This document shows, piece by piece, positions 6,220 to 59,159 of a stretch of 64,000 bases of DNA (position 1 is the stretch's first letter; the number at the start of each line of letters is the position of its first letter). Location: assembly GCF_054482525.1 (NCBI RefSeq), contig NZ_CM137006.1; one strand, 5' to 3'. The position numbers and the translations under genes are program-made. Below the pieces are notes generated by a model. That model was not told where the DNA came from and ran no database searches. It saw only the letters and a program-made list of their open reading frames with translations.

Positions 6220-6277
6220 CGGGAAGTCAGCGTGAGGGTTTCTGGCTACACTTTCTGCAAACAAGAAAGGAGGGGTC

Positions 6278-6754
6278 ATGAAACTCATCAGTAACGATCT
6301 GCGCGATGGCGATAAGTTGCCACATCGTCATGTCTTTAACGGCATGGGTTACGATGGCGATAATATTTCACCGCATCTGGCGTGGGATGATGTTCCTGCG
6401 GGAACGAAAAGTTTTGTTGTCACCTGCTACGACCCGGATGCGCCAACCGGTTCCGGCTGGTGGCACTGGGTAGTTGTTAACTTACCCGCTGATACCCGCG
6501 TATTACCGCAAGGGTTTGGCTCTGGTCTGGTAGCAATGCCAGACGGCGTTTTGCAGACGCGTACCGACTTTGGTAAAGCCGGATACGGTGGCGCAGCGCC
6601 GCCGAAAGGCGAAACCCATCGCTACATCTTTACCGTTCACGCGCTGGATATAGAACGTATTGATGTCGATGAAGGTGCCAGCGGCGCGATGGTCGGGTTT
6701 AACGTCCATTTCCACTCTCTGGCAAGCGCCTCGATTACTGCGATGTTTAGTTAA
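6278..6754 (+). CDS. ybhB: PEBP-family (YbhB/YbcL) protein
   Basis: 158 aa ORF MKLISNDLRDGDKLPHRHVFNGMGYDGDNISPHLAWDDVPAGTKSF; SD-like aggagg 9 bp upstream. Confidence 0.9.
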   Translation: MKLISNDLRDGDKLPHRHVFNGMGYDGDNISPHLAWDDVPAGTKSFVVTCYDPDAPTGSGWWHWVVVNLPADTRVLPQGFGSGLVAMPDGVLQTRTDFGKAGYGGAAPPKGETHRYIFTVHALDIERIDVDEGASGAMVGFNVHFHSLASASITAMFS

Positions 6755-41561: not shown

Positions 41562-43130
41562 TTAGCGTGCCGGCTGAGTAGTCGTGGAAGACTGCTCAAA
41601 GTGATAGCGACCGGTTTTCAGGCTGCTTGGGCCGAGGCGTGCAAACTTGAACATTAAGAACAATTCTGCCACCAGGAACAGGGTATACAGGCCGCAAATC
41701 AGCACCATTGAGAAGATGAGATCGCCTGCGGTCAGTGACGAGTTCGCCACAGCTGTCGGCAGCACTTCACCGATAGCCCACGGTTGGCGGCCATATTCAG
41801 CCACGAACCAGCCCGCTTCTACAGCAATCCACGGCAGCGGAATACCGTACAGCGCGGCGCGCAGCAGCCATTTTTTCTCGCCAATGCGGTTGCGGATGAC
41901 ACTCCAGAAAGAGAGCGCGATGATTGCCAGCAGCAGGAAGCCACACGCCACCATGATACGGAACGCGAAGTACAGCGGCGCTACACGCGGAATGGAGTCT
42001 TTGGTTGCCTGTTGAATCTGCGCTTCAGTCGCATCAGCCACGTTTGGCGTATAGCGTTTCAGCAGCAGACCGTAACCGAGGTCTTTCTTCATGCTATTGA
42101 ACTGGTCACGAACCGCCTGGTCGGTAGAACCAGAACGCAGTTGCTCGAGCAGAGAGTACGCCTTCATCCCGTTACGAATGCGTTCTTCATGCTGCACCAT
42201 CAGTTCTTTCAGGCCGATAACTGGAGTATCCACGGAACGCGTTGCAATGATGCCCAGCGCGTAAGGGATCTGGATCGCAAATTTGTTCGTCTCCTCTTCC
42301 TGATCAGGAATGCCGAACAGAGTAAAGGCAGCAGGCGCAGGTTGCGTTTCCCACTCGGCTTCAATAGCAGCCAGTTTGGTTTTCTGCACGTCGCCCATTT
42401 CGTAACCAGATTCATCACCCAGAACAATAACAGACAGAACGGCAGCCATACCGAAGCTGGCAGCGATAGCAAAGGAGCGTTTAGCGAAGGCGAAGTCACG
42501 ACCTTTCAGCATATACCATGCGCTGATACCGAGGATGAACATCGCGCCAGTCACATAACCAGACGCTACAGTGTGAACGAATTTCACCTGAGCAACCGGG
42601 TTAAGCACCAGCTCGGAGAAGCTCACCATCTCCATACGCATAGTTTCAAAGTTGAAATCGGACGCGATTGGGTTTTGCATCCAGCCGTTCGCAACCAGAA
42701 TCCACAGTGCGGACAGGTTTGAACCGAGCGCCACCAGCCAGGTGACACACATATGCTGAACTTTACCCAGACGATCCCAACCGAAGAAGAACAGACCTAC
42801 AAAGGTGGATTCGAGGAAGAAGGCCATCAGACCTTCGATTGCCAGCGGCGCACCGAAGATATCCCCTACATAGTGGGAATAGTAAGACCAGTTAGTCCCG
42901 AACTGGAACTCCATGGTCAGACCGGTTGCCACACCCAGAGCGAAGTTGATACCAAACAACTTGCCCCAGAACTTGGTCATATCTTTATAAATCTGTTTGC
43001 CGGAAAGGACGTAGACCGTTTCCATAATGGCCAGCAGGAACGCCATACCGAGCGTCAGTGGCACAAAAAGGAAGTGGTACATCGCGGTCAAGGCAAACTG
43101 TAAGCGCGACAGTTCGACTATATCTAACAT
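41562..43130 (-). CDS. cydA: Cytochrome bd-I ubiquinol oxidase subunit I
   Basis: 522 aa from [31 protein letters not shown] (second Met of supplied ORF). Confidence 0.95.
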
Positions 43131-43935
43131 CATGACTCCTTGCTCATCGCATGAAGACTCCGAGAGTGAACCCCGTTAGAAAGGGTCACACGCATGCCCC
43201 AATACAAAATTATTTGCTCGCCTCTATCGTTGCCATTTCATCAAAAGAGGAAAAGACAATGATAAAAAAGTTACAAATATGTTAATGAATAAACCAAATT
43301 GATCCCGTAATTATATTACGCCGCAAAATCCTTACAATAAACAGGTTTTTATTGAGCAAATTTGCATTTTTCGACAGTGATCAATTTATAGCGAAATTGT
43401 CACGATCTCACCAATTTGATCTACGACAATTTATCGTGTTTTGCAGATTTTTTTCAAGAATTAAAAATTGATTTATATCAAAATCAACCAAATATGTTAA
43501 TTATGTATAAACCATAGATTATTGGTAATTTTATTGTTAATTTATTGTGAAATATTTATACAACACAATTATTACAATGAAAAGGTATAGATAAAAAACC
43601 AGTGTTTTATTTAACAGAACCGCCCTATCCACTTTTTATAATACCAATTGATTAGAGTAGCCAATTTGTTGCTATTTTACATAACATATTTTTATCAAAG
43701 TTAATTGATTGTTGCCTTTATGAGCACCGACCGTAAGCCCGTTATGTTATTGTTTCATTAGTAATAATCACTTAAATGTATCGATGAAACAGGTATGACT
43801 TAGCGGGAGTGATTGTTTCTGAGTGAACAGAGACCACTTTCGCCTGATAAATGAAAAATGAGCGATTTTTGCAAGTTAGTTTTTCTATAGCCGAGTACGC
43901 TCAGCGCCTCGCTTGATTACAATGAGGTTGCTGCT
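43131..43935. promoter_or_regulatory. cydA upstream control region (long AT-rich leader/promoter region)
   Basis: ~800 bp AT-rich non-coding DNA upstream of cydA; contains a perfect FNR-type box; cydAB is known to be FNR/ArcA/H-NS controlled. Confidence 0.8.
43468..43481. promoter_or_regulatory. FNR binding site
   Basis: ttgatttatatcaa = perfect TTGAT-N4-ATCAA. Confidence 0.75.
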
Positions 43936-44880
43936 ATGAGTCCTGATAATATCAGTTCTGCTGTCAATCGCTTCTCAGGTTGGCCATCTAATAATCCTCT
44001 AAAAACAGATAACGAATCAATGACATCACCCATGACTGTGCAGGTAATAAAGATGATTGCCGCCATCCTTGACCCACATCGAATAGTCGTTGGAATCGAT
44101 ACACTTTATACAACGCAGCGCGAAACATTTACCTCAGAGAGTCAACAGCTCATTGAATCAGCATTGCAAACACTTCATGTGATGAATTTAAATAACCTGG
44201 AAACAAATCTCGATGAGGAAGGTCACTATCTGGCTTTTGGATATAACGTTGACACTCCTGACAGAATAACCGTTTCTGCTTATAATGAAAAAAAGCCTGG
44301 CTGCTATGGCCAATGTCTTTTAATACAGGATGACGAAACAGACTTATTTAACCTGATAAAAGTTAAAATTTATGAAGCCAGGCATAATTATGTCGCTCAA
44401 TTGATGAGCGATCCGGAATTTATGTTCAAATTTAGTTATAGCGCTCAACAAAATAGATTAGAACCTCATCTTCTGGTTCCCACTTATTTCCCTCTAAAAA
44501 CAAACGAACCGGTTACGCCAGAGGATGTACTGTTACTTTATCGTTTCTTTAAAATGGATGGTGATTTTAATATATTAACATCAGATGAATACATGAGTAT
44601 CATGACACCTCTGATGAAGTGTGAGCGCAGCATCCACGACCACAACAGGTATGTGACGGGCAAAGATACCCTTCTTCTGGACTATCCTCCTTCTGGTAAC
44701 CAGATATATTTCCATATTTTTCCTGACGAATCAGCAACACTAGTCCTTTATTTTTCAAACAATGACATTGAATGTTTCGTCTTTGAAAGAGATATTCCGA
44801 GCCAGTATCGCTTTTTCAAAATGTTTACCAATCTGGCACTGGTTATTGATCAGTTAACCGATGCCAATCAAATACTTTAA
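43936..44880 (+). CDS. Hypothetical protein, 314 aa, AT-rich gene, no family recognised
   Basis: Intact ORF with SD-like gagg upstream; codon usage and GC clearly lower than flanking genes; Ser/Pro/Asn/Thr-rich N-terminus without hydrophobic signal peptide. Confidence 0.7.
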   Translation: MSPDNISSAVNRFSGWPSNNPLKTDNESMTSPMTVQVIKMIAAILDPHRIVVGIDTLYTTQRETFTSESQQLIESALQTLHVMNLNNLETNLDEEGHYLAFGYNVDTPDRITVSAYNEKKPGCYGQCLLIQDDETDLFNLIKVKIYEARHNYVAQLMSDPEFMFKFSYSAQQNRLEPHLLVPTYFPLKTNEPVTPEDVLLLYRFFKMDGDFNILTSDEYMSIMTPLMKCERSIHDHNRYVTGKDTLLLDYPPSGNQIYFHIFPDESATLVLYFSNNDIECFVFERDIPSQYRFFKMFTNLALVIDQLTDANQIL

Positions 44881-44960
44881 TTTTTATATATCCCCTGTGG
44901 CAAATATTGCTAAACAATGCCCGGGGATTAATTTTTATTACTCACGGAAAGATTTAAATA

Positions 44961-45383
44961 ATGATCCCATCTCAAATCTCTTTCAACACCCTTCCTGTCA
45001 ATGCAACATACGCTTCAGAGACAACAGTTGACACACAAAAATTCTCTGACATCCTCTACTCAGCGGGGTGTTCCCTAAAGGATCTGGCTTATCTGAGCAG
45101 ATGTCTGGCATCAATACATCCGACTATCGCCAAAAACATTTATGAAACAGAAAATCTCAGCGATCAAAAATTACTGCATATTGATTTCCGTAGTACAAAT
45201 GAAATCAAGATAAATATCTTTTTTGGTCAACAACGAGAAGGATTAATTGAAATTAATTCTGACACTGTCATTTTTCCGATATTGTCTTCATTAATTGACT
45301 CCGCCATTTCTAAATTTCAACACCAAATCCCCGTTAACGGTTCAGTAAATCCTGACCTATTGTATGAGGATTATACTGATTAA
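44961..45383 (+). CDS. Hypothetical protein, 140 aa, apparently acidic, AT-rich gene
   Basis: ORF 80 bp downstream of the 314-aa gene, same strand, same low-GC composition. Confidence 0.6.
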   Translation: MIPSQISFNTLPVNATYASETTVDTQKFSDILYSAGCSLKDLAYLSRCLASIHPTIAKNIYETENLSDQKLLHIDFRSTNEIKINIFFGQQREGLIEINSDTVIFPILSSLIDSAISKFQHQIPVNGSVNPDLLYEDYTD

Positions 45384-45930
45384 ATCCCTCCTGTCGCGAA
45401 AAATGGCCTGCGTTATTGCCAGACGTAATAAAACTTTTGATTAACGTTACTCGTACTGGTAGCACCTTCATGTACTTTTCTTTTTTACGAAAAATCAAAA
45501 GAGCTAACAAAGGTCATAATTCGCATGAATCATTAATTATTTGTTATTTTCAACATTATTTTTACATTAAGCAGAGATGAATTGCAGTGAAATTCGACTT
45601 AACTTTTATGAAATGCATTTACTCATAGCTAAAGCCACGTCACAAAAATGCAAATTAGAAGTTGATCACAATTATCTCAATACATCAAATCAAGTTAATT
45701 TTAAAAATTTAACATTCATGACATTAGTTGACATAACACACTGAATTAAAATGAGAATTTGAAAACACACTTTAAACAATCATTTCCCGAAAGACATTTT
45801 GAAAATAGATCAATTGCAACATTACGGTCAGATAAAGACACTCCTGTGATATTAAACCTGTGCCGTTATGAGCGGCCATAAATACGACGTGTGTAACTTA
45901 TTTTACTCTCTGTCTTACAAAGGATTACCC

Positions 45931-46380
45931 ATGAAGAAAGCAACACTTGTGATTGGCGTTATTGGCGCGGACTGCCATGCAGTAGGCAATAAAGTTCTGG
46001 ACCGCGTTTTTAGCAACCATGACTTCAGAGTTATTAATCTGGGCGTAATGGTCAGCCAGGACGAATATATTGATGCTGCCATTGAAACTGGTGCTGACGC
46101 GATTGTCGTCTCCTCTATCTATGGGCATGGCGATATCGATTGTCTGGGCATGCGCGAACGCTGCATCGAGCGTGGGCTGGGTAACATCCTGCTCTATGTG
46201 GGCGGTAACCTGGTGGTCGGAAAACATGACTTCGCTGACGTGGAAACCAAGTTCAAAGAGATGGGATTTGATCGCGTCTTTTCCCCAAGTCATGACTTAG
46301 AAGATGTTTGTCAGCTGATGGCCCACGATATCAACCAACGTCATGACGTTGATACTCGCATTCTTGAAGAGGCAATCTGA
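45931..46380 (+). CDS. Glutamate mutase S (sigma) component, B12-binding subunit of methylaspartate mutase
   Basis: ORF 45868..46380; start [21 protein letters not shown] at 45931 with SD aagga; DxHxxG cobalamin-binding motif (DCHAVG); ~149 aa, similar to clostridial GlmS/MutS. Confidence 0.88.
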
Positions 46381-47768
46381 TGCAAATCGTCTCTGTCGAT
46401 ATTGGATCGACGTGGACCAAAGCAGCCCTCTTCACCCGGGAGGGGGACGCGTTAACGTTGGTTAACCACGTTCTGACCCCAACCACCACCCATCATCTGG
46501 CGAAGGGGTTTTTCTCCAGCCTGGACCAGGTGTTAAACGTAGATAATGCCCTCCCCCTGTTAAACAGTGGTGAGGTTGCATTGAAGTATTCCTCCTCTGC
46601 CAAAGGTGGGCTGGCGGTTGCCGCAATGGGATTGGTGCCTTCTATCACCCTGGAAACCGCGAAAGTAACCGCTCACTCTGCGGGTGCTAAAATTGCGCAA
46701 TATTACGCCTACAAGCTGAACCGCCGTGATATCCAGGCACTGGAAGAAACGCAGCCCGATATTCTCTTGTTCACCGGCGGCACCGATGGCGGAGAAGAAA
46801 GCTACGGACTGAATAACGCCCGTGTGTTGGCAGAATCCAAACTCGACTGCGCCATTATTTATGCCGGAAACCGGGATATTCAGGACGAGGTGCAGGAGAT
46901 CCTCGGGCATAAAGACCTGACCATCGTCGACAACGTTCTGCCCGATCTTGACCATCCGAACCCTTTAGCTGCACGCCAGGCTATCTGCGACATATTCCTT
47001 AAACGCATCGTTAAAGGGAAAGGGTTGGATGTCATTGTTGATAAAACAGGCGAAGAACCAATGCCGACACCATGGACGGTCTTTGAACTGGTTAAGGCAA
47101 TCAGTAACGTCGATCACAGCTGGAAAGAGTTCATGCTGATCGACATGGGTGGCGCAACCACCGATGTCTATTCCGCCTGTGCCAACACGCTCTCGCCCGA
47201 CACCGTTTTACACGGCGTACCGGAACCCTTCGTGAAACGGACGGTGGAAGGCGATCTGGGAATGCGCGTCTCGGCAATGGTGGTTGGTGAAAGTGCGAAA
47301 GAGTTAGTCAATGTGAATTTTGCTCAGCAACCCGCACAGCTGGACGCTTTTTATCATTACCTCCGCCATCTAGTCGCTCATCCCGACTACTTACCCGCGA
47401 ATGCAGAAGAAAAATATTTCGATACCGTCCTGGCCGGACTGTGTGTGGGTTATGCCACCGAAAGACATGCGGGCACCAAAAAAGAGGTCTGCACCTGCGT
47501 CGGCAATGTCGATTTACAGATGGGACGTGACCTGACAACCGTGCGTAAAGTCGTTGGTTCCGGCGGATGGCTCTCGCGTGCCAGTCAGTTCGATATGCAT
47601 CACTGGTTGAAATACCGCGAGTTAAACGACGACGGTAAACGCATTCTCTTACCGACCGAATTTGAATATTACCGCGATTCCCGGGGGCTATTACCACTGC
47701 TGGCAAACGTCGCCAGAGTCGATCCACTGGCCGCCGCGCGCACCAGTATTCAATGCTTAACCCTATAA
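46380..47768 (+). CDS. Glutamate mutase L component (GlmL/MutL-like, ASKHA-fold putative reactivase/chaperone)
   Basis: 462 aa [18 protein letters not shown] (ASKHA phosphate-1-like motif); start overlaps S-subunit stop (ATGA); located between S and E genes as in Clostridium. Confidence 0.8.
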   Translation: MQIVSVDIGSTWTKAALFTREGDALTLVNHVLTPTTTHHLAKGFFSSLDQVLNVDNALPLLNSGEVALKYSSSAKGGLAVAAMGLVPSITLETAKVTAHSAGAKIAQYYAYKLNRRDIQALEETQPDILLFTGGTDGGEESYGLNNARVLAESKLDCAIIYAGNRDIQDEVQEILGHKDLTIVDNVLPDLDHPNPLAARQAICDIFLKRIVKGKGLDVIVDKTGEEPMPTPWTVFELVKAISNVDHSWKEFMLIDMGGATTDVYSACANTLSPDTVLHGVPEPFVKRTVEGDLGMRVSAMVVGESAKELVNVNFAQQPAQLDAFYHYLRHLVAHPDYLPANAEEKYFDTVLAGLCVGYATERHAGTKKEVCTCVGNVDLQMGRDLTTVRKVVGSGGWLSRASQFDMHHWLKYRELNDDGKRILLPTEFEYYRDSRGLLPLLANVARVDPLAAARTSIQCLTL

Positions 47769-47786
47769 CAATTAAGGCTGCAATCA

Positions 47787-49232
47787 ATGGAACTTCGAAA
47801 TAAGAAATTAACCCATGACGAATTCATGACCGAGCGGCAACAGGTACTGAAAACCTGGGAAACCGGCAAGGATGTTGAAAACTTTGAAGATGGCGTTAAA
47901 TACCAACAAACCATTCCGGAGCATAAACGCTTCTCTCTTGCCCTGCTGAAAGCAGACAAGGAAGGTAAAACTCTTAGCCAACCGCGCGCAGGCGTGGCGC
48001 TGATGGACGAACACATCGAACTACTGAAAACACTACAAGAAGAGTGCGATCTGCTGCCGAGCACCATCGATGCATATACCCGTCTGAATCGGTACGAAGA
48101 AGCGGCTGTAGGGATTAAAAAATCCATCGAAGCCGGAACCTCTAAACTGAACGGTTTACCGGTCGTTAACCATGGCGTCGCAGCTTGCCGTCGCCTCACC
48201 GAAACTCTGCAAAAACCGCTACAGATCCGCCACGGCACGCCAGATGCGCGTCTGCTGGCTGAAATCTCGATGGCCAGCGGCTTTACCAGTTATGAAGGCG
48301 GCGGCATTTCCTACAATATTCCGTATGCCAAGCGCGTAACGCTGGAAAAATCGATCCGCGACTGGCAGTACTGCGACCGTTTAATGGGGATGTATGAAGA
48401 ACACGGGATCCGCATCAACCGCGAACCGTTTGGCCCACTAACGGGTACGCTGATCCCGCCGTTTATCTCGCACTCTATCGCGATAATCGAAGGATTACTG
48501 GCGCTGGAACAGGGTGTGAAATCTATCACCGTTGGTTATGGACAGGTCGGCAGCCTTACGCAGGATGTCGCGGCGATCCAGTCTCTGCGTGAACTTGCAC
48601 ACGAATACTTTCAGAGCTATGGCTATACCGACTATGAATTAAGTACCGTATTTCACCAGTGGATGGGCGGCTTTCCGGAAGACGAATCGAAAGCGTTCGC
48701 CATTATCTCCTGGGGTGCAGCCGTCGCGGGGATGTCTGGTGCCACCAAAGTCATCACCAAAAGTCCGCACGAAGCCTGGGGCATCCCGACTGCCACTGCC
48801 AACATTCAGGGGCTGAAAGCCTCCCGCCAGATGCTCAACATGGTCAATGAGCAGAAATTCCCGCCGTGCCCTGCGGTTGAACTGGAAATTGAACTGATTA
48901 AGAGCGAGGTTCGCGCGGTACTCAATAAAGTGTTCGAATTGGGTAATGGTGATATTGCGCGCGGTACGGTGCTGGCATTTGAAGCGGGCGTACTGGATGT
49001 GCCGTTTGCACCAGCCGCGTGTAACGCGGGCAAAATTCTTCCTGTCCGTGATAACACCGGCGCGATACGCGTACTGGAAGCCGGAGCCGTTCCATTGCCA
49101 AAAGATATTCTCGACCTCCACCACGATTACGTTGCTGAACGCGCACGCTTTGAAGGACGCCAACCGACATTCCAGATGGTTGTAGATGACATCAATGCTG
49201 TATCCCACAGTAAATTAATAGGAAGACCATAA
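47787..49232 (+). CDS. Glutamate mutase E (epsilon) catalytic subunit, methylaspartate mutase
   Basis: 481 aa MELRNKKLTHDEFMTERQQVLKTWETGKDVE...; strong resemblance to remembered Clostridium cochlearium GlmE (MELKNKKWTDEEF...QPRAGVALLDEHI...HGTPDSRLLAEI...GGGISYNIPYAK). Confidence 0.9.
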   Translation: MELRNKKLTHDEFMTERQQVLKTWETGKDVENFEDGVKYQQTIPEHKRFSLALLKADKEGKTLSQPRAGVALMDEHIELLKTLQEECDLLPSTIDAYTRLNRYEEAAVGIKKSIEAGTSKLNGLPVVNHGVAACRRLTETLQKPLQIRHGTPDARLLAEISMASGFTSYEGGGISYNIPYAKRVTLEKSIRDWQYCDRLMGMYEEHGIRINREPFGPLTGTLIPPFISHSIAIIEGLLALEQGVKSITVGYGQVGSLTQDVAAIQSLRELAHEYFQSYGYTDYELSTVFHQWMGGFPEDESKAFAIISWGAAVAGMSGATKVITKSPHEAWGIPTATANIQGLKASRQMLNMVNEQKFPPCPAVELEIELIKSEVRAVLNKVFELGNGDIARGTVLAFEAGVLDVPFAPAACNAGKILPVRDNTGAIRVLEAGAVPLPKDILDLHHDYVAERARFEGRQPTFQMVVDDINAVSHSKLIGRP

Positions 49233-50473
49233 TGAAAATAAAACAGGCCCTGTTCACCGCTGGCTATTCCTCATTCTATTTCGATGACCAGCAGGCGATA
49301 AAAAACGGAGCGGGTCACGACGGCTTTTTTTATACCGGGGAGCCAGTAACACAGGGGTTTAACGCCGTACGTCAGGCCGGGGAGTGCGTATCGGTACAGT
49401 TGATTCTGGAAAACGGCGCGGTCGCCGTAGGTGACTGTGCTGCCGTACAGTATTCCGGGGCAGGTGGTCGCGATCCACTGTTCCTCGCGGAGCACTTTAT
49501 TCCGTTCCTCAACGACCATATCAAGCCATTACTGGTAGGCCGCGATGTGGATGCTTTCCTGCCGAATGCCCGTTTCTTCGACAAATTGCGTATTGACGGC
49601 AACTTGCTGCATACCGCCGTGCGCTACGGATTATCACAGGCGCTGCTTGATGCTACCGCGCTGGCAACCGGCCGTCTGAAAACTGAAGTGGTCTGTGATG
49701 AATGGCAGTTGCCACGCGTGGCGGAATCCATTCCATTATTTGGTCAGAGCGGCGACGATCGATATATCGCCGTCGATAAGATGATCCTTAAGGGCATCGA
49801 CGTGCTGCCCCATGCGCTGATTAATAACGTCGAAGAGAAACTGGGCTTTAAAGGTGAAAAACTGCGCGAATATGTCCGCTGGCTGTCGGATCGTATTCTG
49901 AGCAAGCGCACCAGCGCACGCTACCACCCTACCCTGCACATCGATGTATACGGCACTATCGGTCTGATCTTCGATATGGATCCGCTTCGCTGTGCGCAAT
50001 ACATCGCCAGCCTGGAAAAAGAAGCGCAAGGCCTGCCGCTCTACATTGAAGGGCCGGTCGATGCCGGTAACAAGCCCGATCAAATTCGCCTGCTGACCGC
50101 GATTACCAAAGAGCTGACGCGCCTCGGTTCCGGCGTGAAAATTGTGGCCGATGAATGGTGTAACACCTACCAGGATATTGTTGATTTCACCGATGCCGCC
50201 AGTTGCCACATGGTGCAAATCAAAACCCCGGATCTGGGCAGTATTCACAACATCGTCGATGCAGTTCTTTATTGCAACAGCCACAGCATGGAAGCGTACC
50301 AGGGCGGCACCTGCAATGAAACTGATGTCAGTGCCCGCACCTGTGTCCACGTCGCCCTTGCCGCTCGCCCCATACGTATGCTGGTAAAGCCAGGGATGGG
50401 CTTTGACGAAGGCCTCGATATCGTCTTCAACGAAATGAATCGTACTATCGCGCTGTTGCAGGCTAAGGATTAA
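49232..50473 (+). CDS. 3-methylaspartate ammonia-lyase (beta-methylaspartase)
   Basis: 413 aa MKIKQALFTAGYSSFYFDDQQAIKNGAGHDGFFYTGEP...CAAVQYSGAGGRDPLF...; enolase-superfamily MAL, close to remembered clostridial MAL; start overlaps glmE stop. Confidence 0.92.
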   Translation: MKIKQALFTAGYSSFYFDDQQAIKNGAGHDGFFYTGEPVTQGFNAVRQAGECVSVQLILENGAVAVGDCAAVQYSGAGGRDPLFLAEHFIPFLNDHIKPLLVGRDVDAFLPNARFFDKLRIDGNLLHTAVRYGLSQALLDATALATGRLKTEVVCDEWQLPRVAESIPLFGQSGDDRYIAVDKMILKGIDVLPHALINNVEEKLGFKGEKLREYVRWLSDRILSKRTSARYHPTLHIDVYGTIGLIFDMDPLRCAQYIASLEKEAQGLPLYIEGPVDAGNKPDQIRLLTAITKELTRLGSGVKIVADEWCNTYQDIVDFTDAASCHMVQIKTPDLGSIHNIVDAVLYCNSHSMEAYQGGTCNETDVSARTCVHVALAARPIRMLVKPGMGFDEGLDIVFNEMNRTIALLQAKD

Positions 50474-50476
50474 CAA

Positions 50477-51847
50477 ATGGCTCGTTCTTTTAAAGTCTTA
50501 TCGCCAACGGCAATCCTCGGGTATGGATTCCCGGAGGAGAGCTTCCGCAAAGCGATGGCAGAATCGCCCGATCTGATCGCCGTTGATGCTGGCTCTTCCG
50601 ATCCGGGTCCCCACTACCTCGGGGCGGGCAAACCGTTTACCGATCGCGCAGGGGTCAAGCGCGATCTACGCTATATGATCACCGCAGGCGTGCAAAATAA
50701 TATACCGGTGGTGATCGGAACGGCCGGCGGTTCTGGTGCCGCTCCACACCTGGAGTGGTGCCGAGAAATAATTCATGAGATTGCCCGGGAAGAGCACCTC
50801 TCGTTCTCGATGGCGCTGATCCCGGCAGACGTTGACAAAGCCATCGTCCACCAGGCGCTGGATAACGGCAAAATCACGGCGCTGGATTTTGTCCCGCCGT
50901 TAACCCACGACGCGATTGACGAAAGTACGTATATCGTCGCGCAAATGGGCATCGAACCCTTCCAGCAGGCGCTGAAAGAAGGCGCGCAAGTGGTGCTGGG
51001 CGGGCGCGCTTACGACCCGGCCTGCTTTGCTGCGCTACCGATCATGCAAGGCTTTGATGAAGGTCTGGCGCTGCATTGTGGGAAAATCCTTGAATGCGCG
51101 GCAATCGCCGCAACGCCCGGCTCAGGCTCTGACTGTGCGATGGGCATCATTGATGACAACGGCTTTACGCTGAAGACATTTAATCCGAAGCGTAAATTTA
51201 CCGAAACGTCAGCGGCTGCACACACACTGTATGAGAAATCCGATCCCTACTTCCTGCCAGGACCTGGCGGCGTGTTGAACCTGAAAGGCTGCACATTTAA
51301 AGCGGTCAATGACGGCGAAGTGTACGTCAGCGGTTCTAAGCATGAAGAAACGCCGTATGCCCTGAAACTGGAAGGTGCGCGACGGGTGGGCTTCCGCTGT
51401 CTGACCATCGCAGGAACGCGCGACCCGATCATGATCGCCGGGATCGATAAAATCATCGATGAAGTCAAAACCAGCGTTTCGCGTAACCTGTCGCTCGACG
51501 ATGACAGCATACGCATCAATTTCCACCTGTACGGCAAAAACGGGGTGATGGGCGACCATGAACCGATGCAAACTGCCGGGCATGAGCTGGGGATTGTCCT
51601 TGATGTAGTTGCACCGACCCAGGAAATTGCCAACAGCGTTTGCTCGCTGGTGCGCTCTACTATGCTGCACTACGGCTATGAAAACCGCATCGCTACCGCA
51701 GGCAACCTGGCGTTCCCATTCTCCCCTTCAGATATCCAGGGCGGGCCGGTATACGAATTTTCCATATATCACCTGATTGAAGCCAACGACGCTCTGCGTT
51801 TTGATTTCCATATTGAACAGGTGACGCCAGAAGGAGTTCAGGCATGA
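50477..51847 (+). CDS. Conserved protein of unknown function (possibly DUF1446 / AtuA-like family; assignment from memory, unverified)
   Basis: 456 aa ORF starting 4 nt after MAL stop; no recognisable catalytic motif. Confidence 0.75.
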   Translation: MARSFKVLSPTAILGYGFPEESFRKAMAESPDLIAVDAGSSDPGPHYLGAGKPFTDRAGVKRDLRYMITAGVQNNIPVVIGTAGGSGAAPHLEWCREIIHEIAREEHLSFSMALIPADVDKAIVHQALDNGKITALDFVPPLTHDAIDESTYIVAQMGIEPFQQALKEGAQVVLGGRAYDPACFAALPIMQGFDEGLALHCGKILECAAIAATPGSGSDCAMGIIDDNGFTLKTFNPKRKFTETSAAAHTLYEKSDPYFLPGPGGVLNLKGCTFKAVNDGEVYVSGSKHEETPYALKLEGARRVGFRCLTIAGTRDPIMIAGIDKIIDEVKTSVSRNLSLDDDSIRINFHLYGKNGVMGDHEPMQTAGHELGIVLDVVAPTQEIANSVCSLVRSTMLHYGYENRIATAGNLAFPFSPSDIQGGPVYEFSIYHLIEANDALRFDFHIEQVTPEGVQA

Positions 51848-52161
51848 AACAGTCAATTGTCTCACTGGCGCAAGTCATTCGTTCGAAAAATGCCGGACCT
51901 TACGAACTGGTTTTAGATATTTTATTTAAAACCAAAGAAAACTATGAGCGAGTTAAATCATCAGGGCAATTAACCCCAGAACTGATCGCGCGCTTATATC
52001 ATGTTGAACCTGACTTTATTCATCGTATTGTCTGGTTTGATCCTTCTAACGCAGTAAAAATCGTCATGCCACGAGATATTATCTCCGGGAATGTAGGTGA
52101 CAATGATGTCTATGGTGCACAGCAACATGCACCTTTATTAAATATGAGTTTCGATTTGTAA
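51844..52161 (+). CDS. Small conserved protein of unknown function (possibly DUF4387), partner of preceding gene
   Basis: 105 aa ORF whose ATG overlaps the stop of the preceding gene (ATGA), implying translational coupling. Confidence 0.7.
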   Translation: MKQSIVSLAQVIRSKNAGPYELVLDILFKTKENYERVKSSGQLTPELIARLYHVEPDFIHRIVWFDPSNAVKIVMPRDIISGNVGDNDVYGAQQHAPLLNMSFDL

Positions 52162-52321
52162 AAATCCGAACACTTTTAGCCAACTGACATCCCGTCACTT
52201 ATTGCAGTTCAACACTTCAGCTATTTGTAAGGTTGTAATAGCAGGTAGATGCCTGAATCTTTATTCGGGCATCTACTTCTCCTGATTCTGATTTATCGCC
52301 GTGCACCTGATGGAGGAAAAA

Positions 52322-53602
52322 ATGAAGAAAATAAGTTTAACCACGATGATTCTTTTGGCGCTGGTACTTGGAATGATTATCGGCGTAGTGCTCAATAACA
52401 CTGCTTCACCGGAAACAGCAAAACTCTATGCGCAAGAAATATCGATATTCACGACGATTTTCTTACGACTGATAAAAATGATTATCGCTCCGTTAGTGGT
52501 CTCTACCCTGGTGGTAGGTATAGCTAAAATGGGCGATGCCAAAGCCCTTGGTCGTATTTTTTCTAAAACACTCTTTTTATTTATTTGCGCCTCATTGCTG
52601 TCAATTGCCTTAGGCTTGATAACAGTAAATTTCTTCATGCCAGGCACAGGAATTAATTTTGTTGCACACGGTGCCGAAACCACCGGAGTGGTCGCGTCAG
52701 AACCCTTTACGCTAAAAGTATTTATTTCGCATGCTTTCCCCACCAGCATTGTCGATGCCATGGCGCACAATGAAATTTTGCAAATCGTGGTGTTCTCAAT
52801 TTTCCTCGGCTGTAGCCTGACGGCGATTGGTGAGAAAGGCAGCGCCATCGTTCACGCCTTAGATTCGCTGGCACATGCCATGTTAAAGCTCACTGGCTAC
52901 GTCATGCTCTTCGCTCCCCTGACCGTATTCGCTGCTATTTCAGCATTGATTGCTGAACGAGGACTGGCAGTTATGGTGAGCGCCGGGATCTTTATGGGTG
53001 AATTTTATTTCACCATGTTGTTACTTTGGGTGCTGCTTATCGGTCTGGCCATCGTTTATGTCGGCCCCTGCATCAGACGCCTGACCCGCGCCCTTTCGGA
53101 ACCCGCCCTGCTGGCATTTACCACATCCAGTTCTGAAGCGGCTTTTCCGGGAACGCTTGAAAAACTGGAGCAATTTGGCGTTTCCCCCAAAATTGCCAGC
53201 TTTGTCTTACCCATTGGCTACTCATTTAATCTCGTTGGATCAATGGCCTACTGCTCCTTCGCCACAGTTTTCATCGCCCAGGCCTGCAATATCCATTTAT
53301 CCATCGGTGAGCAAATCACCATGCTGTTGATCCTGATGTTGACCTCGAAAGGAATGGCTGGCGTACCACGCGCCTCAATGGTGGTTATCGCCGCCACGCT
53401 CAACCAGTTCAATATTCCGGAAGCGGGGCTGATCTTGCTGATGGGCGTTGATCCGTTCCTTGATATGGGGCGTTCAGCGACAAACGTCATGAGCAACGCA
53501 ATGGGCGCTGCGATGGTGAGTCGGTGGGAAGGCGAACATTTCGGCGAGGGCTGTCGGGGTAAAGCATTAAAACCCAATGAATCGAACGTTGCTCTGCCCT
53601 GA
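52322..53602 (+). CDS. Dicarboxylate/amino acid:cation symporter (GltP/DctA family)
   Basis: ORF 52301..53602; start MKKISLTTMILLALVLGMIIGVV at 52322 after SD ggagg; multi-pass hydrophobic protein resembling glutamate/aspartate or C4-dicarboxylate symporters. Confidence 0.85.
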   Translation: MKKISLTTMILLALVLGMIIGVVLNNTASPETAKLYAQEISIFTTIFLRLIKMIIAPLVVSTLVVGIAKMGDAKALGRIFSKTLFLFICASLLSIALGLITVNFFMPGTGINFVAHGAETTGVVASEPFTLKVFISHAFPTSIVDAMAHNEILQIVVFSIFLGCSLTAIGEKGSAIVHALDSLAHAMLKLTGYVMLFAPLTVFAAISALIAERGLAVMVSAGIFMGEFYFTMLLLWVLLIGLAIVYVGPCIRRLTRALSEPALLAFTTSSSEAAFPGTLEKLEQFGVSPKIASFVLPIGYSFNLVGSMAYCSFATVFIAQACNIHLSIGEQITMLLILMLTSKGMAGVPRASMVVIAATLNQFNIPEAGLILLMGVDPFLDMGRSATNVMSNAMGAAMVSRWEGEHFGEGCRGKALKPNESNVALP

Positions 53603-53709
53603 GGGGGATCTTAAGCAATCAGAAGCCAATGACTACGCATTTTTATAAGCCGGATCATGAAGTTAGACGGCAATTAAGTAACACTAACGTTTAAGGTGAA
53701 AAGTGAAAT

Positions 53710-55362
53710 ATGTCCAAACCATTTATCTGGCAAGAACCGTTTCTACAAAATAAAGACGGTACAGAATATACATTAATTAGCGATCAACATATTACAGTAA
53801 CGGAATTAGACGGCGAAGAAGTGATAAAAATCGCTCCTGAAGCATTAACGCTGCTTGCCCGGCAGGCATTTTATGAAGCCTCTTTTTTCTTACGTTCCGC
53901 TCATTTGCAACAGGTCGCCAGCATTTTTAACGATCCGCAGGCCAGCAGTAATGATAAATACGTTGCGTTGCAGTTATTACGTAATGCTGAAGTCTCAGCA
54001 AAAGGGGTATTACCCAACTGTCAGGATACCGGCACCGCAACTATTGTTGCCAGTAAAGGGCAACAGATATGGACCGGAGGTAACGACGCTGAAGCCTTAA
54101 GCAAAGGCATTTACACCACTTTCCAGGAAAATAATCTGCGCTTTTCACAAAATGCGCCGCTGGATATGTACACCGAAGTCAATACGCAAACCAATCTCCC
54201 GGCGCAGATTGATATCAGCGCTGTCGCTGGTGATGAGTACCATTTTCTCTGTGTTAATAAAGGGGGCGGCTCTGCCAATAAAGCCGCGCTTTATCAGGAA
54301 ACCAAATCCTTATTGCAACCAGAAAAACTGACCGCATTTTTAATCGAAAAAATGAAATCGCTGGGCACCGCTGCCTGCCCGCCTTACCACATCGCCTTTG
54401 TCGTCGGAGGGCTTTCAGCCGATCAAACCTTAAAAGTTGCCAAGCTGGCCTCTACGAAATATTACGACAATTTGCCCACCAGCGGAAACGAGCAGGGACA
54501 AGCATTCCGTGATATTGAGCTGGAAAAAGTGTTGCTCGAGGCCAGTCAGCAATTTGGTATTGGTGCGCAATTTGGGGGTAAATATTTCGCTCATGATATT
54601 CGCGTCATTCGTCTGCCGCGTCACGGTGGCTCTTGCCCGATAGCTATGGCGCTCTCCTGTTCTGCGGATCGCAATATCAAAGCAAAAATTAACAAGCACG
54701 GTATCTGGCTGGAAAAACTCGAACACAATCCTGGGCAATATATTCCAGCCTCACTACGGGAAGAAAATCACGCGCAACATGTACAACTGGATCTAAACCG
54801 TCCGTTGCGTGAAGTGATGCAGGATCTCGCCAGATTACCGGTAGGTACCCGCGTGTCGTTAAGTGGTCCCATCGTAGTGGCGCGCGATATCGCCCACGCC
54901 AAAATAAAAGTGCGGCTGGATAGCGGCGAACCGATGCCGGATTACCTGAAGCATCATATTGTCTATTACGCTGGCCCGGCGAAAACACCGGAGAACATGG
55001 CCTGCGGTTCACTGGGTCCAACCACGGGCGGTCGAATGGACGGTTATGTCGATACCTTCCAGGCTGCTGGCGGCAGTCTGGTAATGTTATCGAAAGGTAA
55101 CCGCAGCCAGCAGGTCACCGATGCCTGTCACAAACATGGCGGCTTCAATCTGGGAAGTATTGGCGGTGCAGCTGCGTTACTGGCGCAAGAATATGTCAAA
55201 AGTCTGCGTTGCCTGGAATACCCGGAGCTGGGTATGGAAGCGGTGTGGATGATGGAAGTGGAAAATTTACCCGCATTCATCCTGGTAGATGATAAAGGCA
55301 ATAATTTCTTTAGTCAGTTTGAGCAGCAACACCGCTGTGCCAGTTGCCCTGCGGGACATTAA
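53710..55362 (+). CDS. fumD: Class I (Fe-S) fumarate hydratase-like enzyme; likely mesaconase/fumarase FumD type
   Basis: 550 aa, collinear similarity to E. coli FumA/FumB ([74 protein letters not shown]); clustered with glutamate mutase and MAL. Confidence 0.85.
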
Positions 55363-55371
55363 GGAAAATGA

Positions 55372-55974
55372 ATGGAAGCGCGAATTTCAACTGAACGGCA
55401 TGTGCAGCACCAGCAAAAATTGAAGGAACAGGTCGATACGCGCGTCGCGGCGGCGATAGAGAAAAAAGGGATCTTGATTGTTTTCACCGGCAACGGCAAA
55501 GGGAAATCCACTGCCGCGTTTGGTACTGTGACGCGCGCGGTGGGTCATGGCAAAACGGTGGGGGTTGCGCAGTACATCAAGGGGCAATGGGACAACGGCG
55601 AATACAACCTTCTCCAGCCGCTGGGGGTTGAGTTTCATATTATGGGAACCGGTTTTACCTGGGAGACACAGAACCGGCAAGCGGATATCGACGCGGCGAA
55701 AGAGGTCTGGTCGGAAAGCAAACGGATGCTGGCTGACAAGCGTTACGACTTAGTGGTGCTTGATGAGCTGACCTATATGCTGGCTTACCATTATCTGGAC
55801 ACCGAAGAAGTGATCGCTTCTCTGCAAAACCGCCCGGCACAACAAAGTGTCATTGTCACCGGACGCGGTTGCCACAGTCAGATATTAAAAATGGCGGATA
55901 CGGTCAGCGAAATCCGCCCCGTCAAACATGCTTTTGATAACGGCATTCAGGCGCAGCCGGGTATCGACTGGTAA
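55372..55974 (+). CDS. Cob(I)alamin adenosyltransferase (CobA/BtuR family), cluster-associated
   Basis: 200 aa; P-loop VFTGNGKGKSTAAFG and ...WETQNRQADIDAA...DLVVLDELTYM...TGRGCH...VSEIRPVKHAF matching remembered E. coli BtuR. Confidence 0.88.
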   Translation: MEARISTERHVQHQQKLKEQVDTRVAAAIEKKGILIVFTGNGKGKSTAAFGTVTRAVGHGKTVGVAQYIKGQWDNGEYNLLQPLGVEFHIMGTGFTWETQNRQADIDAAKEVWSESKRMLADKRYDLVVLDELTYMLAYHYLDTEEVIASLQNRPAQQSVIVTGRGCHSQILKMADTVSEIRPVKHAFDNGIQAQPGIDW

Positions 55975-56685
55975 TAAATATCCTCCGGCATAGCCGGAGG
56001 TTTTTCAAATGCGCCTATAAGGCTCTCTTACCAGCCGCGCCCTAACAGGCGCACACGATCTGACATTTGCATCCAACTTCGTTACTTACGGCCCGTAAAC
56101 GGGCTGCCCGGATAGGGAATCGATAACTGCTCTCCCATTTTATCCTCTTCAAGCTGGTGCTTTATGTAATCCTGTATCTTCGCCGTGTTCTTACCCACCG
56201 TATCGACGTAGTACCCTCTGCACCAGAACTCCCTGTTCCTGTATTTGAATTTCAAATCACCAAACTGCTCGTAAAGCATCAGACTGCTTTTCCCTTTCAG
56301 ATATCCCATAAAGCCGGATACGCTCATTTTGGGCGGGATCTCCACAAGCATATGGATATGATCTGCACAGCATTCAGCTTCCAGAATCCGTACACTTTTC
56401 CACTCACACAGCTTTCTCAAAATACTGCCTATTGCTCTACGCTTCTCTCTGTAGAACACCTGTCTTCGGTATTTTGGCGCAAAAACTATGTGATATTTAC
56501 AGTTCCATCGGGTGTGCGCTAAGCTCTTTTCGTTCCCCATTGGGACCCCCTTTTGATTTCTTGTTTGACACTTGCAGTTGCCAGACCGCAAGGTGTTTTA
56601 ACAAATCAAAAGGGGTTTTAATAACTGGCTTAAAGCTGAAAGCTTTCCGGAACCCCCAGCCTAGCTGGGGGTTTTCTGTGCACAA
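55973..56685 (-). mobile_element. IS200-family insertion sequence, copy 2, 713 bp
   Basis: Identical by eye to 19138..19850 including transposase gene and both subterminal hairpins; begins within/at the TAA stop of the adenosyltransferase gene. Confidence 0.9.
56082..56540 (-). CDS. tnpA: IS200-type Y1 (HUH) transposase TnpA
   Basis: Protein identical to that of copy 1 (supplied ORFs 19247..19756 and 56082..56591 are identical). Confidence 0.9.
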   Translation of the reverse strand: MGNEKSLAHTRWNCKYHIVFAPKYRRQVFYREKRRAIGSILRKLCEWKSVRILEAECCADHIHMLVEIPPKMSVSGFMGYLKGKSSLMLYEQFGDLKFKYRNREFWCRGYYVDTVGKNTAKIQDYIKHQLEEDKMGEQLSIPYPGSPFTGRK

Positions 56686-56718
56686 TAACTGCGCCTGGCA
56701 TCCCGCCAGGCGCAGGTT

Positions 56719-57624
56719 TTACATCTCCTGCGGTACAACCGATTTCGCCAGCAACCATTCACGAAATTGCTGCAAGTGCGGTGAGTCAGACTTCTCTTCC
56801 TGCCACGTCATAATAAAACGATTACCGGTACGAATAGGCACATCACAGGGAATCACCATATCGCCACTATCCAAATCATGTTGAATAGCGAACCGTGGTA
56901 ACAGCGCCACGCCGAGATTAGAGCGCACGGCGGCAATCAGCATTGAAAGCAAATCGAAACGTGGTCCGTTGTTGACCAGCGGACTGCTAACGCCAGATAA
57001 GGCAAACCACTCTTCCCAGCCAGTAATACGGGTACTTTGATGCAGAAGTGGTAACTCTGTAAGCAGTTCTGCCACTGACAGTTTTTGATCGGACATTGCA
57101 AGCAAACTGCCGCTGCATACCGGCAAAATCTCCTCTTCAAAGAGATATTCTACTTCCGCCCAGGGCGCGCAAAAATTTTCGCGCATAATGACAGCATCGT
57201 ACTCCCGATTAAGAAAATCGCCGTTATTAGCTAAAGAGTGAATATTAACAATAATATCGGGATGTAACTTTGTGAATTCATGTAAATTTGGGATTAACCA
57301 GTGGGTACTAAACGTAGGATTCACGGCAAGTTCAATAACCTTAACTGTAGGTTGCCAGGTCATAATGGTATTGGTATCGCGTTCCAGCTTATTTAATGTT
57401 TCTTTTACTATCCCCAGGTAATACTTCCCTGCATCATTAAGAAAAATACGTTTTTTAGAGTGTGAAAATAACGGAGTATGTAAAAATTCCTCCAGCGCAC
57501 TCACTTGTCTGAATACTGCACTTTGGGTTAACGCTAACTCCTCTGCCGCTCTGGTATAACTTTCATGACGTGCGACGACCTCAAAAGTCACCAGCAGTTC
57601 CGTTTTAGGTATTTTTCCTCGCAT
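56719..57624 (-). CDS. LysR-type transcriptional regulator
   Basis: 301 aa; N-terminal HTH ...FEVVARHESYTRAAEELALTQSAVFRQVSALEEFL, C-terminal periplasmic-binding-protein-like effector domain. Confidence 0.85.
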   Translation of the reverse strand: MRGKIPKTELLVTFEVVARHESYTRAAEELALTQSAVFRQVSALEEFLHTPLFSHSKKRIFLNDAGKYYLGIVKETLNKLERDTNTIMTWQPTVKVIELAVNPTFSTHWLIPNLHEFTKLHPDIIVNIHSLANNGDFLNREYDAVIMRENFCAPWAEVEYLFEEEILPVCSGSLLAMSDQKLSVAELLTELPLLHQSTRITGWEEWFALSGVSSPLVNNGPRFDLLSMLIAAVRSNLGVALLPRFAIQHDLDSGDMVIPCDVPIRTGNRFIMTWQEEKSDSPHLQQFREWLLAKSVVPQEM

Positions 57625-58190
57625 AATGCCGTCCCTTAAAAATAGTTTAAACCATCAAAAATACATTACTTATTACGAAGTAATGGTAACCAAAGCAGCA
57701 ATAAATAATTTATAAGAATCATGATTGACATTTATAACCCAGTAAGCCTGGCGTGACAAATATCTTAATCAGATAATAATAATCCGAAAAGCACAGCGCC
57801 TTTCGAATTATCCGGAATCACATTAAGTGAAAATTATTAAATTGATATCATTTATCATATCTGTGGATATTATGATAAACAATCAACAAAGATTTTATTT
57901 TTGATTTATAGCATATCCCTCTAAGAATTTTTGCGATGCTGCAATATCCGGGGTAAAGACCCGATCCTGGCTGACAAATGGCACGACTTGACGATAAGCG
58001 GTGAACATCGCTTTTGTTGATTTACTTAACGCTACGGTCAAACGCTGGGAAGCCAGTGCATCAGGTAACGATTCGAAATTCGCCGTCGTTCTTATTCGTG
58101 GCTTGCGGTCGGTTGCGGCAATCCACAGTGGCTGTGGTCATGCAGTCAAGCCAGCGGTCAGATTTCGACCGTGGTTAACATTTAAGGCAT

Positions 58191-58214
58191 AAAAAAGGCC
58201 ATCATACGATGGCC
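58191..58214 (-). terminator. Rho-independent terminator of sucABCD
   Basis: On minus strand ggccatcgtatgatggcc hairpin followed by tttttt. Confidence 0.8.
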
Positions 58215-58289
58215 AACCATGTCGAAACCGACAGCCCTTCGCCATTCCTGTAGAGGGAAGCGGCGAGGGCTATTTCTTATTACAGATAT
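58191..58289 (-). ncRNA. sdhX: Putative 3-prime-UTR-derived sRNA SdhX (RybD) of the sdh-suc operon
   Basis: ~100 nt between sucD stop and the terminator hairpin; in E. coli this 3-prime UTR gives rise to SdhX; boundaries approximate. Confidence 0.5.
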
Positions 58290-59159
58290 TTATTTCAGAA
58301 CAGTTTTCAGTGCTTCACCGATATCCGCCAGGCTGCGAACGGTTTTCACGCCTGCGGCTTCCAGAGCAGCGAATTTCTCATCCGCAGTCCCTTTCCCACC
58401 GGCAATGATGGCACCCGCGTGGCCCATACGTTTGCCTTTCGGCGCAGTCACACCAGCGATGTAACCCACAACAGGCTTGGTAACGTGCTCTTTGATGTAC
58501 GCAGCCGCTTCTTCTTCAGCGCTACCGCCGATCTCACCGATCATCACGATCGCTTCGGTCTGCGGATCTTTTTCGAACATTTCGAGGATGTCGATAAAGT
58601 TAGAGCCAGGGATCGGGTCGCCGCCGATACCAACACAGGTCGACTGACCGAAACCGTAATCCGTGGTCTGTTTAACCGCTTCATAGGTCAGTGTACCGGA
58701 ACGGGAAACGATACCCACTTTACCCGGTTTGTGAATGTGACCAGGCTGGATACCGATTTTGCATTCACCCGGAGTGATAACGCCTGGGCAGTTCGGGCCG
58801 ATCATGCGAACGCCCGCTTCATCCAGTTTCACCTTCACGGTCAGCATATCCAGCGTCGGGATGCCTTCAGTGATGGTGATAATCAGTTTGATGCCTGCAT
58901 CAATAGCTTCCAGAATGGAGTCTTTGCAGAACGGTGCTGGTACGTAGATAACAGAAGCGGTAGCGCCAGTAGCAGCAACAGCTTCACGCACGGTGTTGAA
59001 CACCGGCAGGCCGAGGTGGGTGGTGCCGCCTTTACCTGGGGTTACGCCGCCAACCATTTTAGTGCCGTATGCAATGGCCTGTTCTGAGTGGAAAGTCCCC
59101 TGGCTACCGGTAAAGCCCTGGCAGATAACCTTGGTGTTTTTATCAATTAAAATGGACAT
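58290..59159 (-). CDS. sucD: Succinyl-CoA synthetase alpha subunit
   Basis: 289 aa [45 protein letters not shown]. Confidence 0.96.

Follow-up and report, generated by a model that had tools for sequence, protein, structure and literature searches.

Two AT-rich genes between cydA and the glm genes

The window analyzed in this work, a 64,000-nt stretch of contig NZ_CM137006.1 (RefSeq assembly GCF_054482525.1), is Escherichia coli chromosome, and its segment 43100-45900 is 100% identical to strain PCN033. This study concerns two adjacent open reading frames (ORFs) in that segment, both labeled hypothetical protein by RefSeq in E. coli PCN033. The first, orf314 (43936-44880, plus strand, 314 aa, accession number WP_001366650.1), is ECs0767 of the O157:H7 strain Sakai, and the second, orf140 (44961-45383, plus strand, 140 aa, WP_000613116.1), is ECs0766 of the same strain. 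Their coordinates, lengths and divergence from cydA, as given in the initial annotation of the window, agree exactly with the ORF list and RefSeq. The cydA gene (41562-43133, minus strand) is separated from orf314 by an 802-bp intergenic region. A GAGG Shine-Dalgarno motif read from the sequence is located at 43924-43927 (plus strand), 8 nt 5' of the orf314 ATG. The two ORFs are separated by an AT-rich spacer of 80 nt (44881-44960, 31% GC), in which the terminator scan detected no terminator-like site. Downstream of orf140 there is a 547-bp AT-rich spacer (45384-45930, 32% GC), the most divergent stretch between E. coli strains, and then, on the same strand, the methylaspartate mutase genes glmS, glmL and glmE. 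On the cydA side the pair is flanked by cydABX-ybgE-tol-pal, and on the glm side by glm, a fumarase gene, cobO, a LysR-family regulator and sucD. By annotation, no secretion-system, phage, Rhs, contact-dependent inhibition (CdiA), VgrG or type VI secretion gene is present within 15 kb of the pair.

Both genes differ from their neighbors in base composition and codon usage, and per-gene calculation upholds the initial annotation on both counts. The GC content is 38.2% for orf314 (35.6% at third codon positions, GC3) and 36.9% for orf140 (GC3 34.0%), against 49-54% in the neighboring genes (cydA and cydB 53-54%, GC3 62-66%; glmS, glmL and glmE 49-53%, GC3 51-59%). Rare codons (ATA, AGA, AGG, CTA, CGA and CGG) occur at 5.4 per 100 in orf314 and 5.0 per 100 in orf140, compared with 0 to 2.3 across the neighbors (0.2-0.3 in cydA and cydB, 0.7-2.3 in the three glm genes). 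Among the window ORFs of at least 250 aa, orf314 has the lowest GC content. The three non-coding stretches that flank or separate the two ORFs are 31-33% GC. In 300-bp scanning windows, the interval 43250-45950 shows 24-43% GC versus 50.7% for the window as a whole, which makes it an AT-rich block of approximately 2.7 kb.

Coding status and rate of evolution

The ratio of nonsynonymous to synonymous divergence (dN/dS) was calculated by the Nei-Gojobori method for five orthologous orf314 and four orf140 sequences, with values of 0.2-0.5 for orf314 and 0.20-0.40 for orf140. Three comparisons were tested for departure from neutrality, giving Fisher p values of 1.4e-6 and 4.6e-6 for orf314 and 7e-4 for orf140. 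Compared with its E. albertii-type ortholog, orf314 shows 64% amino acid identity and 216 nucleotide differences (23% nucleotide divergence over 314 codons), and there is no indel in the frame. The differences fall most frequently at the third codon position (65, 56 and 95 at positions 1, 2 and 3, respectively). In 20,000 simulations under neutrality, run with the same spectrum of substitutions, the orf314 frame was still open in 0.035% of the runs. Because dN/dS is below 1, third-position changes are in excess and retention of the frame is improbable under neutrality, it was concluded that both ORFs are genuine protein-coding genes.

The purifying selection on both genes is real but weak, and they evolve far faster than their neighbors. 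Between E. coli and E. albertii, cydA, cydB and sucD have dN/dS values of 0.006-0.02, and glmL gave 0.05-0.12. The dN of orf314 is 0.22 versus 0.002-0.004 for cydA, cydB and sucD (a difference of about 100 times), while its dS is 0.50 versus 0.21-0.26 for the same three genes (about 2 times). Within E. coli, the interval 43550-45800 is a divergence hot spot with 83-94% identity between strains, compared with 97-99% in the cydAB and glmSLE flanks. Inside this interval the spacers vary more than the ORFs, and identity is lowest in the spacers that flank them (83-84% in 45384-45930, between E. coli strains).

Homolog searches

The initial annotation had recognized no homolog, and profile, sequence, phage, plasmid and species-wide searches likewise found only Escherichia/Shigella copies. 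Neither protein had a match in NCBIfam, Pfam, PADLOC, PHROGs or PDB sequence searches, and PDB profile searches with both family alignments gave nothing below E = 0.9; no homology to a housekeeping family was detected in Pfam, NCBIfam or PDB. When orf314 was searched exhaustively with phmmer against 1.84 billion representative proteins, 14 matches were obtained, all of them copies or fragments of the protein itself with at least 74% identity. The search for orf140 homologs was carried out with a word index, which was also used for orf314. It yielded five orf314 clusters and 42 orf140 clusters; those with a named source are from E. coli/Shigella, and one divergent cluster is from E. albertii. 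Scanning one genome per species over 100,044 species revealed four loci: two E. coli-like contigs in mis-binned metagenome-assembled genomes, one locus in E. albertii and one in Escherichia sp. MOD1-EC7003. No homolog of either gene was found outside Escherichia/Shigella by the index search or the species scan, or by phmmer for orf314. A search of phage proteins found no relative of either ORF. A plasmid collection gave three matches only, all E. coli copies with 98-99% identity; two of the three are in records of chromosome size. By these searches, both genes are orphans restricted to Escherichia/Shigella and without detectable relatives.

The two contigs in metagenome-assembled genomes come from GTDB species representatives labeled Collinsella sp. 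and Citrobacter sp. (loci L011 and L012), where orf314 occurs at 97-99% identity on short contigs. These copies are most likely mis-binned E. coli DNA.

The name "hypothetical" has accompanied the two genes in every source for 25 years. No relevant main text in the searchable literature mentions the locus tags ECs0766/ECs0767 or Z0898/Z0899, nor do the supplements of the ribosome-profiling papers from the Neuhaus laboratory that were examined. The only published table found to list the genes is from the RNA-seq study of Landstorfer et al. (2014).

Distribution and history of the locus

The pair is found in 1135 of 5426 complete E. coli genomes (about one in five). The glm genes likewise occur in 1135, and within these complete genomes the pair is always accompanied by the methylaspartate island. 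In a sample of 40 evenly spaced E. coli copies, 39 have two annotated coding sequences and nothing else under the match, and one carries an IS4 insertion. Among the carriers are O157:H7, O55:H7, the porcine extraintestinal pathogenic strain PCN033 and, with orf314 alone, most of the E. albertii sampled. As estimated from blast identity bands, approximately 59% of E. coli genomes lack the pair and have mngRAB between cydA and sucD (as in K-12), and approximately 20% lack it and have a gene for a tetratricopeptide repeat (TPR) protein at this position (as in strain E5). Homology of the window with the K-12 haplotype ends at 43506, which confirms the placement of the pair at the edge of an island, and homology with the TPR-protein haplotype of strain E5 reaches 43771.

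The gene order in E. albertii is cydA, orf314, a decayed orf140 with 31 recognizable residues, a gene for a 258-aa signal-peptide protein, and sucD, with no glm genes. The E. albertii orf314 cluster has 131 members, and 12 of the 15 members listed are full-length at 314 aa; in the E. albertii type strain a frameshift splits the gene into 209 and 108 aa. Homologs of orf140 are found in E. coli and Shigella only, among them several frameshifted or truncated variants, and Shigella dysenteriae carries a truncated copy. In Escherichia sp. MOD1-EC7003 the glm genes are present and the orf314-orf140 region is broken by two inverted elements of about 130 nt (6345-6474 and 7084-7213 of locus L014), identified as enterobacterial repetitive intergenic consensus (ERIC/IRU) elements by the ERIC primer core sequence. 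The module has been lost or broken repeatedly in some lineages. The glm cluster is also known from Klebsiella, Citrobacter, Salmonella and further genera (PMC4682846), in which the above searches gave no homolog of orf314 or orf140. Across taxa the pair does not co-occur with glmSLE/MAL, though the two are linked within E. coli.

The differing composition, the presence of orf314 without glm in E. albertii, and the presence of glm without the pair in other genera show that the pair is separate in origin from the adjacent methylaspartate island and older. The orf314 dS of 0.50, compared with 0.21-0.26 in the core genes, fits the presence of the pair in the Escherichia common ancestor and its subsequent replacement in many E. 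coli lineages. The separate horizontal acquisition proposed in the initial annotation is supported in this respect, with the amendment that the event is old and not recent.

Several observations were made on the surrounding interval. The interval between cydA and sucD (43507-58290 in the window; loci L002, L007 and L009) is a hot spot of replacement, in which at least four alternative contents were seen: mngRAB; the TPR-protein gene; orf314-orf140 with the methylaspartate island; and orf314 with a dead orf140 and the 258-aa protein. In E. coli O127:H6, a 510-nt glmS remnant is all that is left, which suggests that the island was once present and later deleted. To the left of 44284 the MOD1-EC7003 locus shares 96% identity with the window, and to the right of 45240 it shares 87%; its glmL shows a dS of 0.79 versus 0.09 for cydA. 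The step in identity and the high glmL dS point either to a recombination breakpoint within the AT-rich block or to separate acquisition of the glm allele.

Protein properties and structure predictions

The smaller protein was described as acidic in the initial annotation, and its calculated isoelectric point (pI) is 4.65; the larger one is equally acidic (pI 4.68). No hydrophobic segment was found in either protein, the maximum Kyte-Doolittle mean over 19 residues being 1.25 for orf314 and 1.33 for orf140. The claim that orf314 has no signal peptide agrees with this lack of a hydrophobic stretch, as judged by hydropathy alone. The polar N-terminus noted earlier for orf314 is clearly present: residues 1-30 contain 53% Ser, Thr, Asn, Pro or Gln, versus 29% in the rest of the protein. 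The same pattern, not remarked on in the initial annotation, is seen in orf140 (50% versus 30%). AT-rich codons tend to encode such residues, which can account for a polar N-terminus in both proteins. In the orf314 tail, 21 of 30 residues (70%) are identical between E. coli and E. albertii, compared with 64% for the whole protein.

AlphaFold2 models had a mean predicted local distance difference test score of 43.5 for orf314 (alignment of four sequences) and 44.1 for orf140 (nine sequences). A Foldseek search of the PDB with the poor orf314 model gave a best E value of 0.058 at a TM score of 0.13, which is noise. The low-confidence orf140 model shows three helices, three strands and one long helix, in that order. 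From these predictions the two are probably soluble cytoplasmic alpha/beta proteins with polar N-terminal tails.

The similar helix/three-strand/helix patterns raised the possibility that orf140 is a paralog of one half of orf314 (BLASTP E = 1, hhalign E = 0.038). This was rejected, as Smith-Waterman scores compared with 500 shuffles gave p = 0.83 and p = 0.40. A relationship between the N-terminal and C-terminal halves of orf314 was also unsupported (shuffle p = 0.068).

Regulatory region and expression

The initial annotation placed the promoter of the pair in the cydA regulatory region. The cydA control region is indeed adjacent, but the part in common with K-12 (43134-43506, approximately 80% identity, delimited with blastn and MAFFT by comparison to K-12, strain E5 and E. 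albertii-like loci) is followed by a haplotype-specific AT-rich region of 429 bp (43507-43935, plus strand) that is absent from K-12 as judged by the homology end points. This region is mostly 24-32% GC in 300-bp scanning windows and about 40% GC in the last 200 bp before orf314. With 429 bp of haplotype-specific DNA before orf314, the promoter need not sit in the classical cydA control region; it is likely to lie within 43507-43935. Promoter-like and terminator-like sites in the region scanned were not above the shuffled expectation, and an Rfam scan of 43100-46000 gave a chance miRNA match only (E = 0.94).

A search with the FNR pattern located a perfect FNR-type box (43468-43481) that aligns with the K-12 box. 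It reads TTGATTTATATCAA in the window and TTGATAAATATCAA in K-12, with a different spacer. The cydA control region is strongly polymorphic (43134-43506 in the window and 6032-6404 in locus L009; approximately 80% identity between this haplotype and K-12), and the CydA protein (WP_000884361.1) is identical in both haplotypes despite this divergence. Strain-specific regulation of cydAB is possible.

Expression was assessed from the RNA-seq data of strain EDL933 (O157:H7) under 11 conditions (Table S4 of Landstorfer et al., 2014; PMC4048457), in which four hypothetical ORFs, Z0896 to Z0899, lie between glmS (Z0895) and cydA (Z0900). The values in reads per kilobase per million (RPKM) range from 0 to 12 for these four and are mostly 0-2: Z0896 has 0 throughout, Z0897 has 2 in LB and 0 in the other conditions, Z0898 has 0-5, and Z0899 has 0 except for 11 and 12 in two conditions. 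For comparison, cydA has an RPKM of 2-212 in the same table. Since all four candidates are near-silent, the result holds whichever Z numbers correspond to orf314 and orf140. The pair is nearly untranscribed in the 11 laboratory and environmental conditions in O157:H7. The combination of 2.7 kb of DNA at 24-40% GC and near-zero transcription points to xenogeneic silencing, and we infer that this block is bound and silenced by H-NS.

A probable Escherichia-restricted orphan module

The pair is an uncharacterized example of a well-known kind, the lineage-specific orphan genes of the H-NS type. Lineage-restricted AT-rich ORFans of E. coli were reportedly described by Daubin and Ochman in Genome Research in 2004. 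Like these, orf314 and orf140 are confined to one genus, AT-rich and rich in rare codons, with raised dN/dS, no homologs and a variable locus; a narrow taxonomic range, selection on the frame, atypical composition and accelerated evolution were all observed. Unlike them, orf314 is long (314 aa) and has been open since before the split of E. coli and E. albertii, and no link to phage was found. H-NS-silenced xenogeneic DNA was reportedly described by Navarre and by Lucchini in 2006, and the K-12 cydAB promoter region is bound and controlled by H-NS. The window resembles such DNA in having a 2.7-kb AT-rich block in a 51% GC genome, with near-zero transcription and adjoining an H-NS-controlled promoter region; occupancy of the block by H-NS in the window is suggested by AT content and silence.

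We consider it probable that orf314 and orf140 are a small orphan module, old and AT-rich, that is restricted to Escherichia, weakly selected, silent in the laboratory and independent of the metabolic island. The module is seated in the cydA-sucD interval, a hot spot of gene replacement. H-NS would cover the AT-rich block, and the genes would be expressed only once silencing is relieved. In this scheme orf314 would be the conserved core and orf140 a dispensable accessory. Our best guess is a niche-specific, non-essential intracellular role rather than that of a toxin, an effector or a pathway enzyme.

A number of points weigh against this interpretation. The N-terminal 30 residues of orf314 show the same degree of conservation as the full-length protein, which hints at a specific role of the tail. 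The description as soluble alpha/beta proteins stems from weak secondary-structure calls and hydropathy, the models being poor. H-NS binding is suggested by AT content and low expression, and silence is read from all four Z-number candidates for orf314 and orf140. The orf140 search was by word index. The locus has been disrupted by the E. albertii type strain frameshift, the ERIC insertions, the Shigella truncation and the IS4 insertion, and weak selection, silence and repeated pseudogenization could also mean slow decay.

Such decay is the basis of the first alternative, in which the two genes were once functional and are now silent passengers, carried in E. coli mainly by tight linkage to cydA and glm and heading to become pseudogenes. 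The RPKM of about 0-5 across the 11 EDL933 conditions, the dN/dS of 0.2-0.5 (20-70 times that of the core neighbors), the independent breaks in the E. albertii type strain, MOD1-EC7003, Shigella dysenteriae, the frameshifted E. coli variants and the single IS4 copy, and the death of orf140 in E. albertii are all consistent with it. It is at odds with a dN/dS significantly below 1 in all three comparisons tested and with an orf314 frame that has stayed open and free of indels since the E. coli-E. albertii split, an outcome reached in 0.035% of the neutral simulations. The 12 full-length proteins among the 15 members listed from the E. albertii cluster and the two annotated coding sequences in 39 of 40 sampled E. 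coli copies also argue against relics, and we regard this explanation as unlikely.

The initial annotation suggested a secreted effector with a small chaperone. In its most specific form, orf314 would be a type III substrate with orf140 as an acidic partner or chaperone, or both would be substrates, exported through the locus of enterocyte effacement (LEE) or the E. coli type III secretion system 2 (ETT2) of many carrier lineages. Both tails of about 30 residues are 50-53% Ser, Thr, Asn, Pro or Gln with one Leu, there is no signal peptide by hydropathy, and the tail of orf314 has been conserved in both E. coli and E. albertii. With 140 aa and a pI of 4.65, orf140 has the size and acidic charge typical of class I chaperones, and the arrangement of a larger protein with a polar N-terminus beside a small acidic protein of about 140 aa is that of the Tir/CesT and SptP/SicP pairs. 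The carriers O157:H7, O55:H7 and E. albertii have LEE; other carriers, such as PCN033, are not known to have it. There is no sequence or profile similarity to the known pairs and no match to an effector or chaperone family (e.g., CesT) in Pfam or NCBIfam, nor did PDB sequence or profile searches give a match. The site is flanked by core respiration genes and a metabolic island and is not in a prophage or secretion island, no secretion gene is found within 15 kb, and phage relatives are lacking. AT-rich codons predict a polar N-terminus, and the small partner has one as well. The predicted order of elements in orf140 differs from that of class I chaperones (low-confidence model), orf314 persists where orf140 is dead, and neither the ECs nor the Z locus tags of the pair are found in a relevant main text. 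The survival of orf314 without orf140 in E. albertii argues against obligate pairing in general. The attractive virulence-effector reading was left without support and is, in our estimate, improbable.

A broader and more speculative version deserves little weight as a whole. Here orf314 would found a new Escherichia-specific family with a conserved polar N-terminal signal for export or interaction; it would, for example, be a substrate of LEE or of the poorly understood ETT2 type III system, or a factor directed at the host or at competitors; and it would be kept silent by H-NS until a gut signal lifts the repression, with orf140 as an optional second substrate or partner.

The initial annotation also offered a toxin/immunity pair, and a toxin-antitoxin pair is a variant of it; orf314 would be toxic and the downstream acidic orf140 would neutralize it. 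A small ORF on the same strand does begin 81 nt 3' of orf314, and AT-richness, a narrow distribution and unusual divergence between strains are traits that the module has in common with many polymorphic toxin/immunity cassettes. The two-gene layout with a small downstream ORF recalls the CdiA-CT/CdiI and Rhs-CT/RhsI cassettes. Unlike these, the pair has no toxin, immunity or defense profile match (PADLOC included), no recognizable pre-toxin motif in orf314 as read from the sequence, and no Rhs, CdiA, VgrG or other delivery gene within 15 kb. In E. albertii the putative toxin gene is intact and under selection and the putative immunity gene is degraded, which is unexpected for an antidote. We find a toxin/immunity function very unlikely.

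Equally hard to credit is an accessory or regulatory role in the downstream same-strand methylaspartate (glutamate fermentation) operon. In its favor, pair and operon are fully linked in complete E. coli genomes (1135 pair, 1135 glm) and share one orientation, and the scan detected no terminator-like site between orf140 and glmS. Against it, orf314 is present and glm absent in E. albertii, the pair is broken beside glm in MOD1-EC7003, and in other genera the cluster occurs and the pair does not. The composition is also very different, orf140 and glmS are 547 bp of AT-rich spacer apart, and no DNA-binding or enzyme domain was found.

The analysis shows that the pair consists of true coding genes under selection, which predate the glutamate-fermentation island, are separate from it and have no detectable relatives. 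As probable members of an orphan module, they provide a clean test case for the role of lineage-specific, putatively H-NS-silenced orphan genes. The interval from cydA to sucD, together with half of the cydA control region, stands out as a hot spot of recombination and replacement, and this may bear on how cytochrome bd is regulated in different strains.

Three further observations concern annotation of the interval. In the original annotations of Sakai and EDL933, small ORFs (ECs0765; Z0896 and possibly Z0899) were assigned to the AT-rich spacers; ECs0765 is gone from the current Sakai record. The longest glmS ORF starts at 45868 (170 aa), and the RefSeq start is at 45931 (149 aa). An IS200C transposase gene, mapped from the PCN033 annotation, is located inside the island at approximately 56082-56540, between cobO and the LysR-family regulator.

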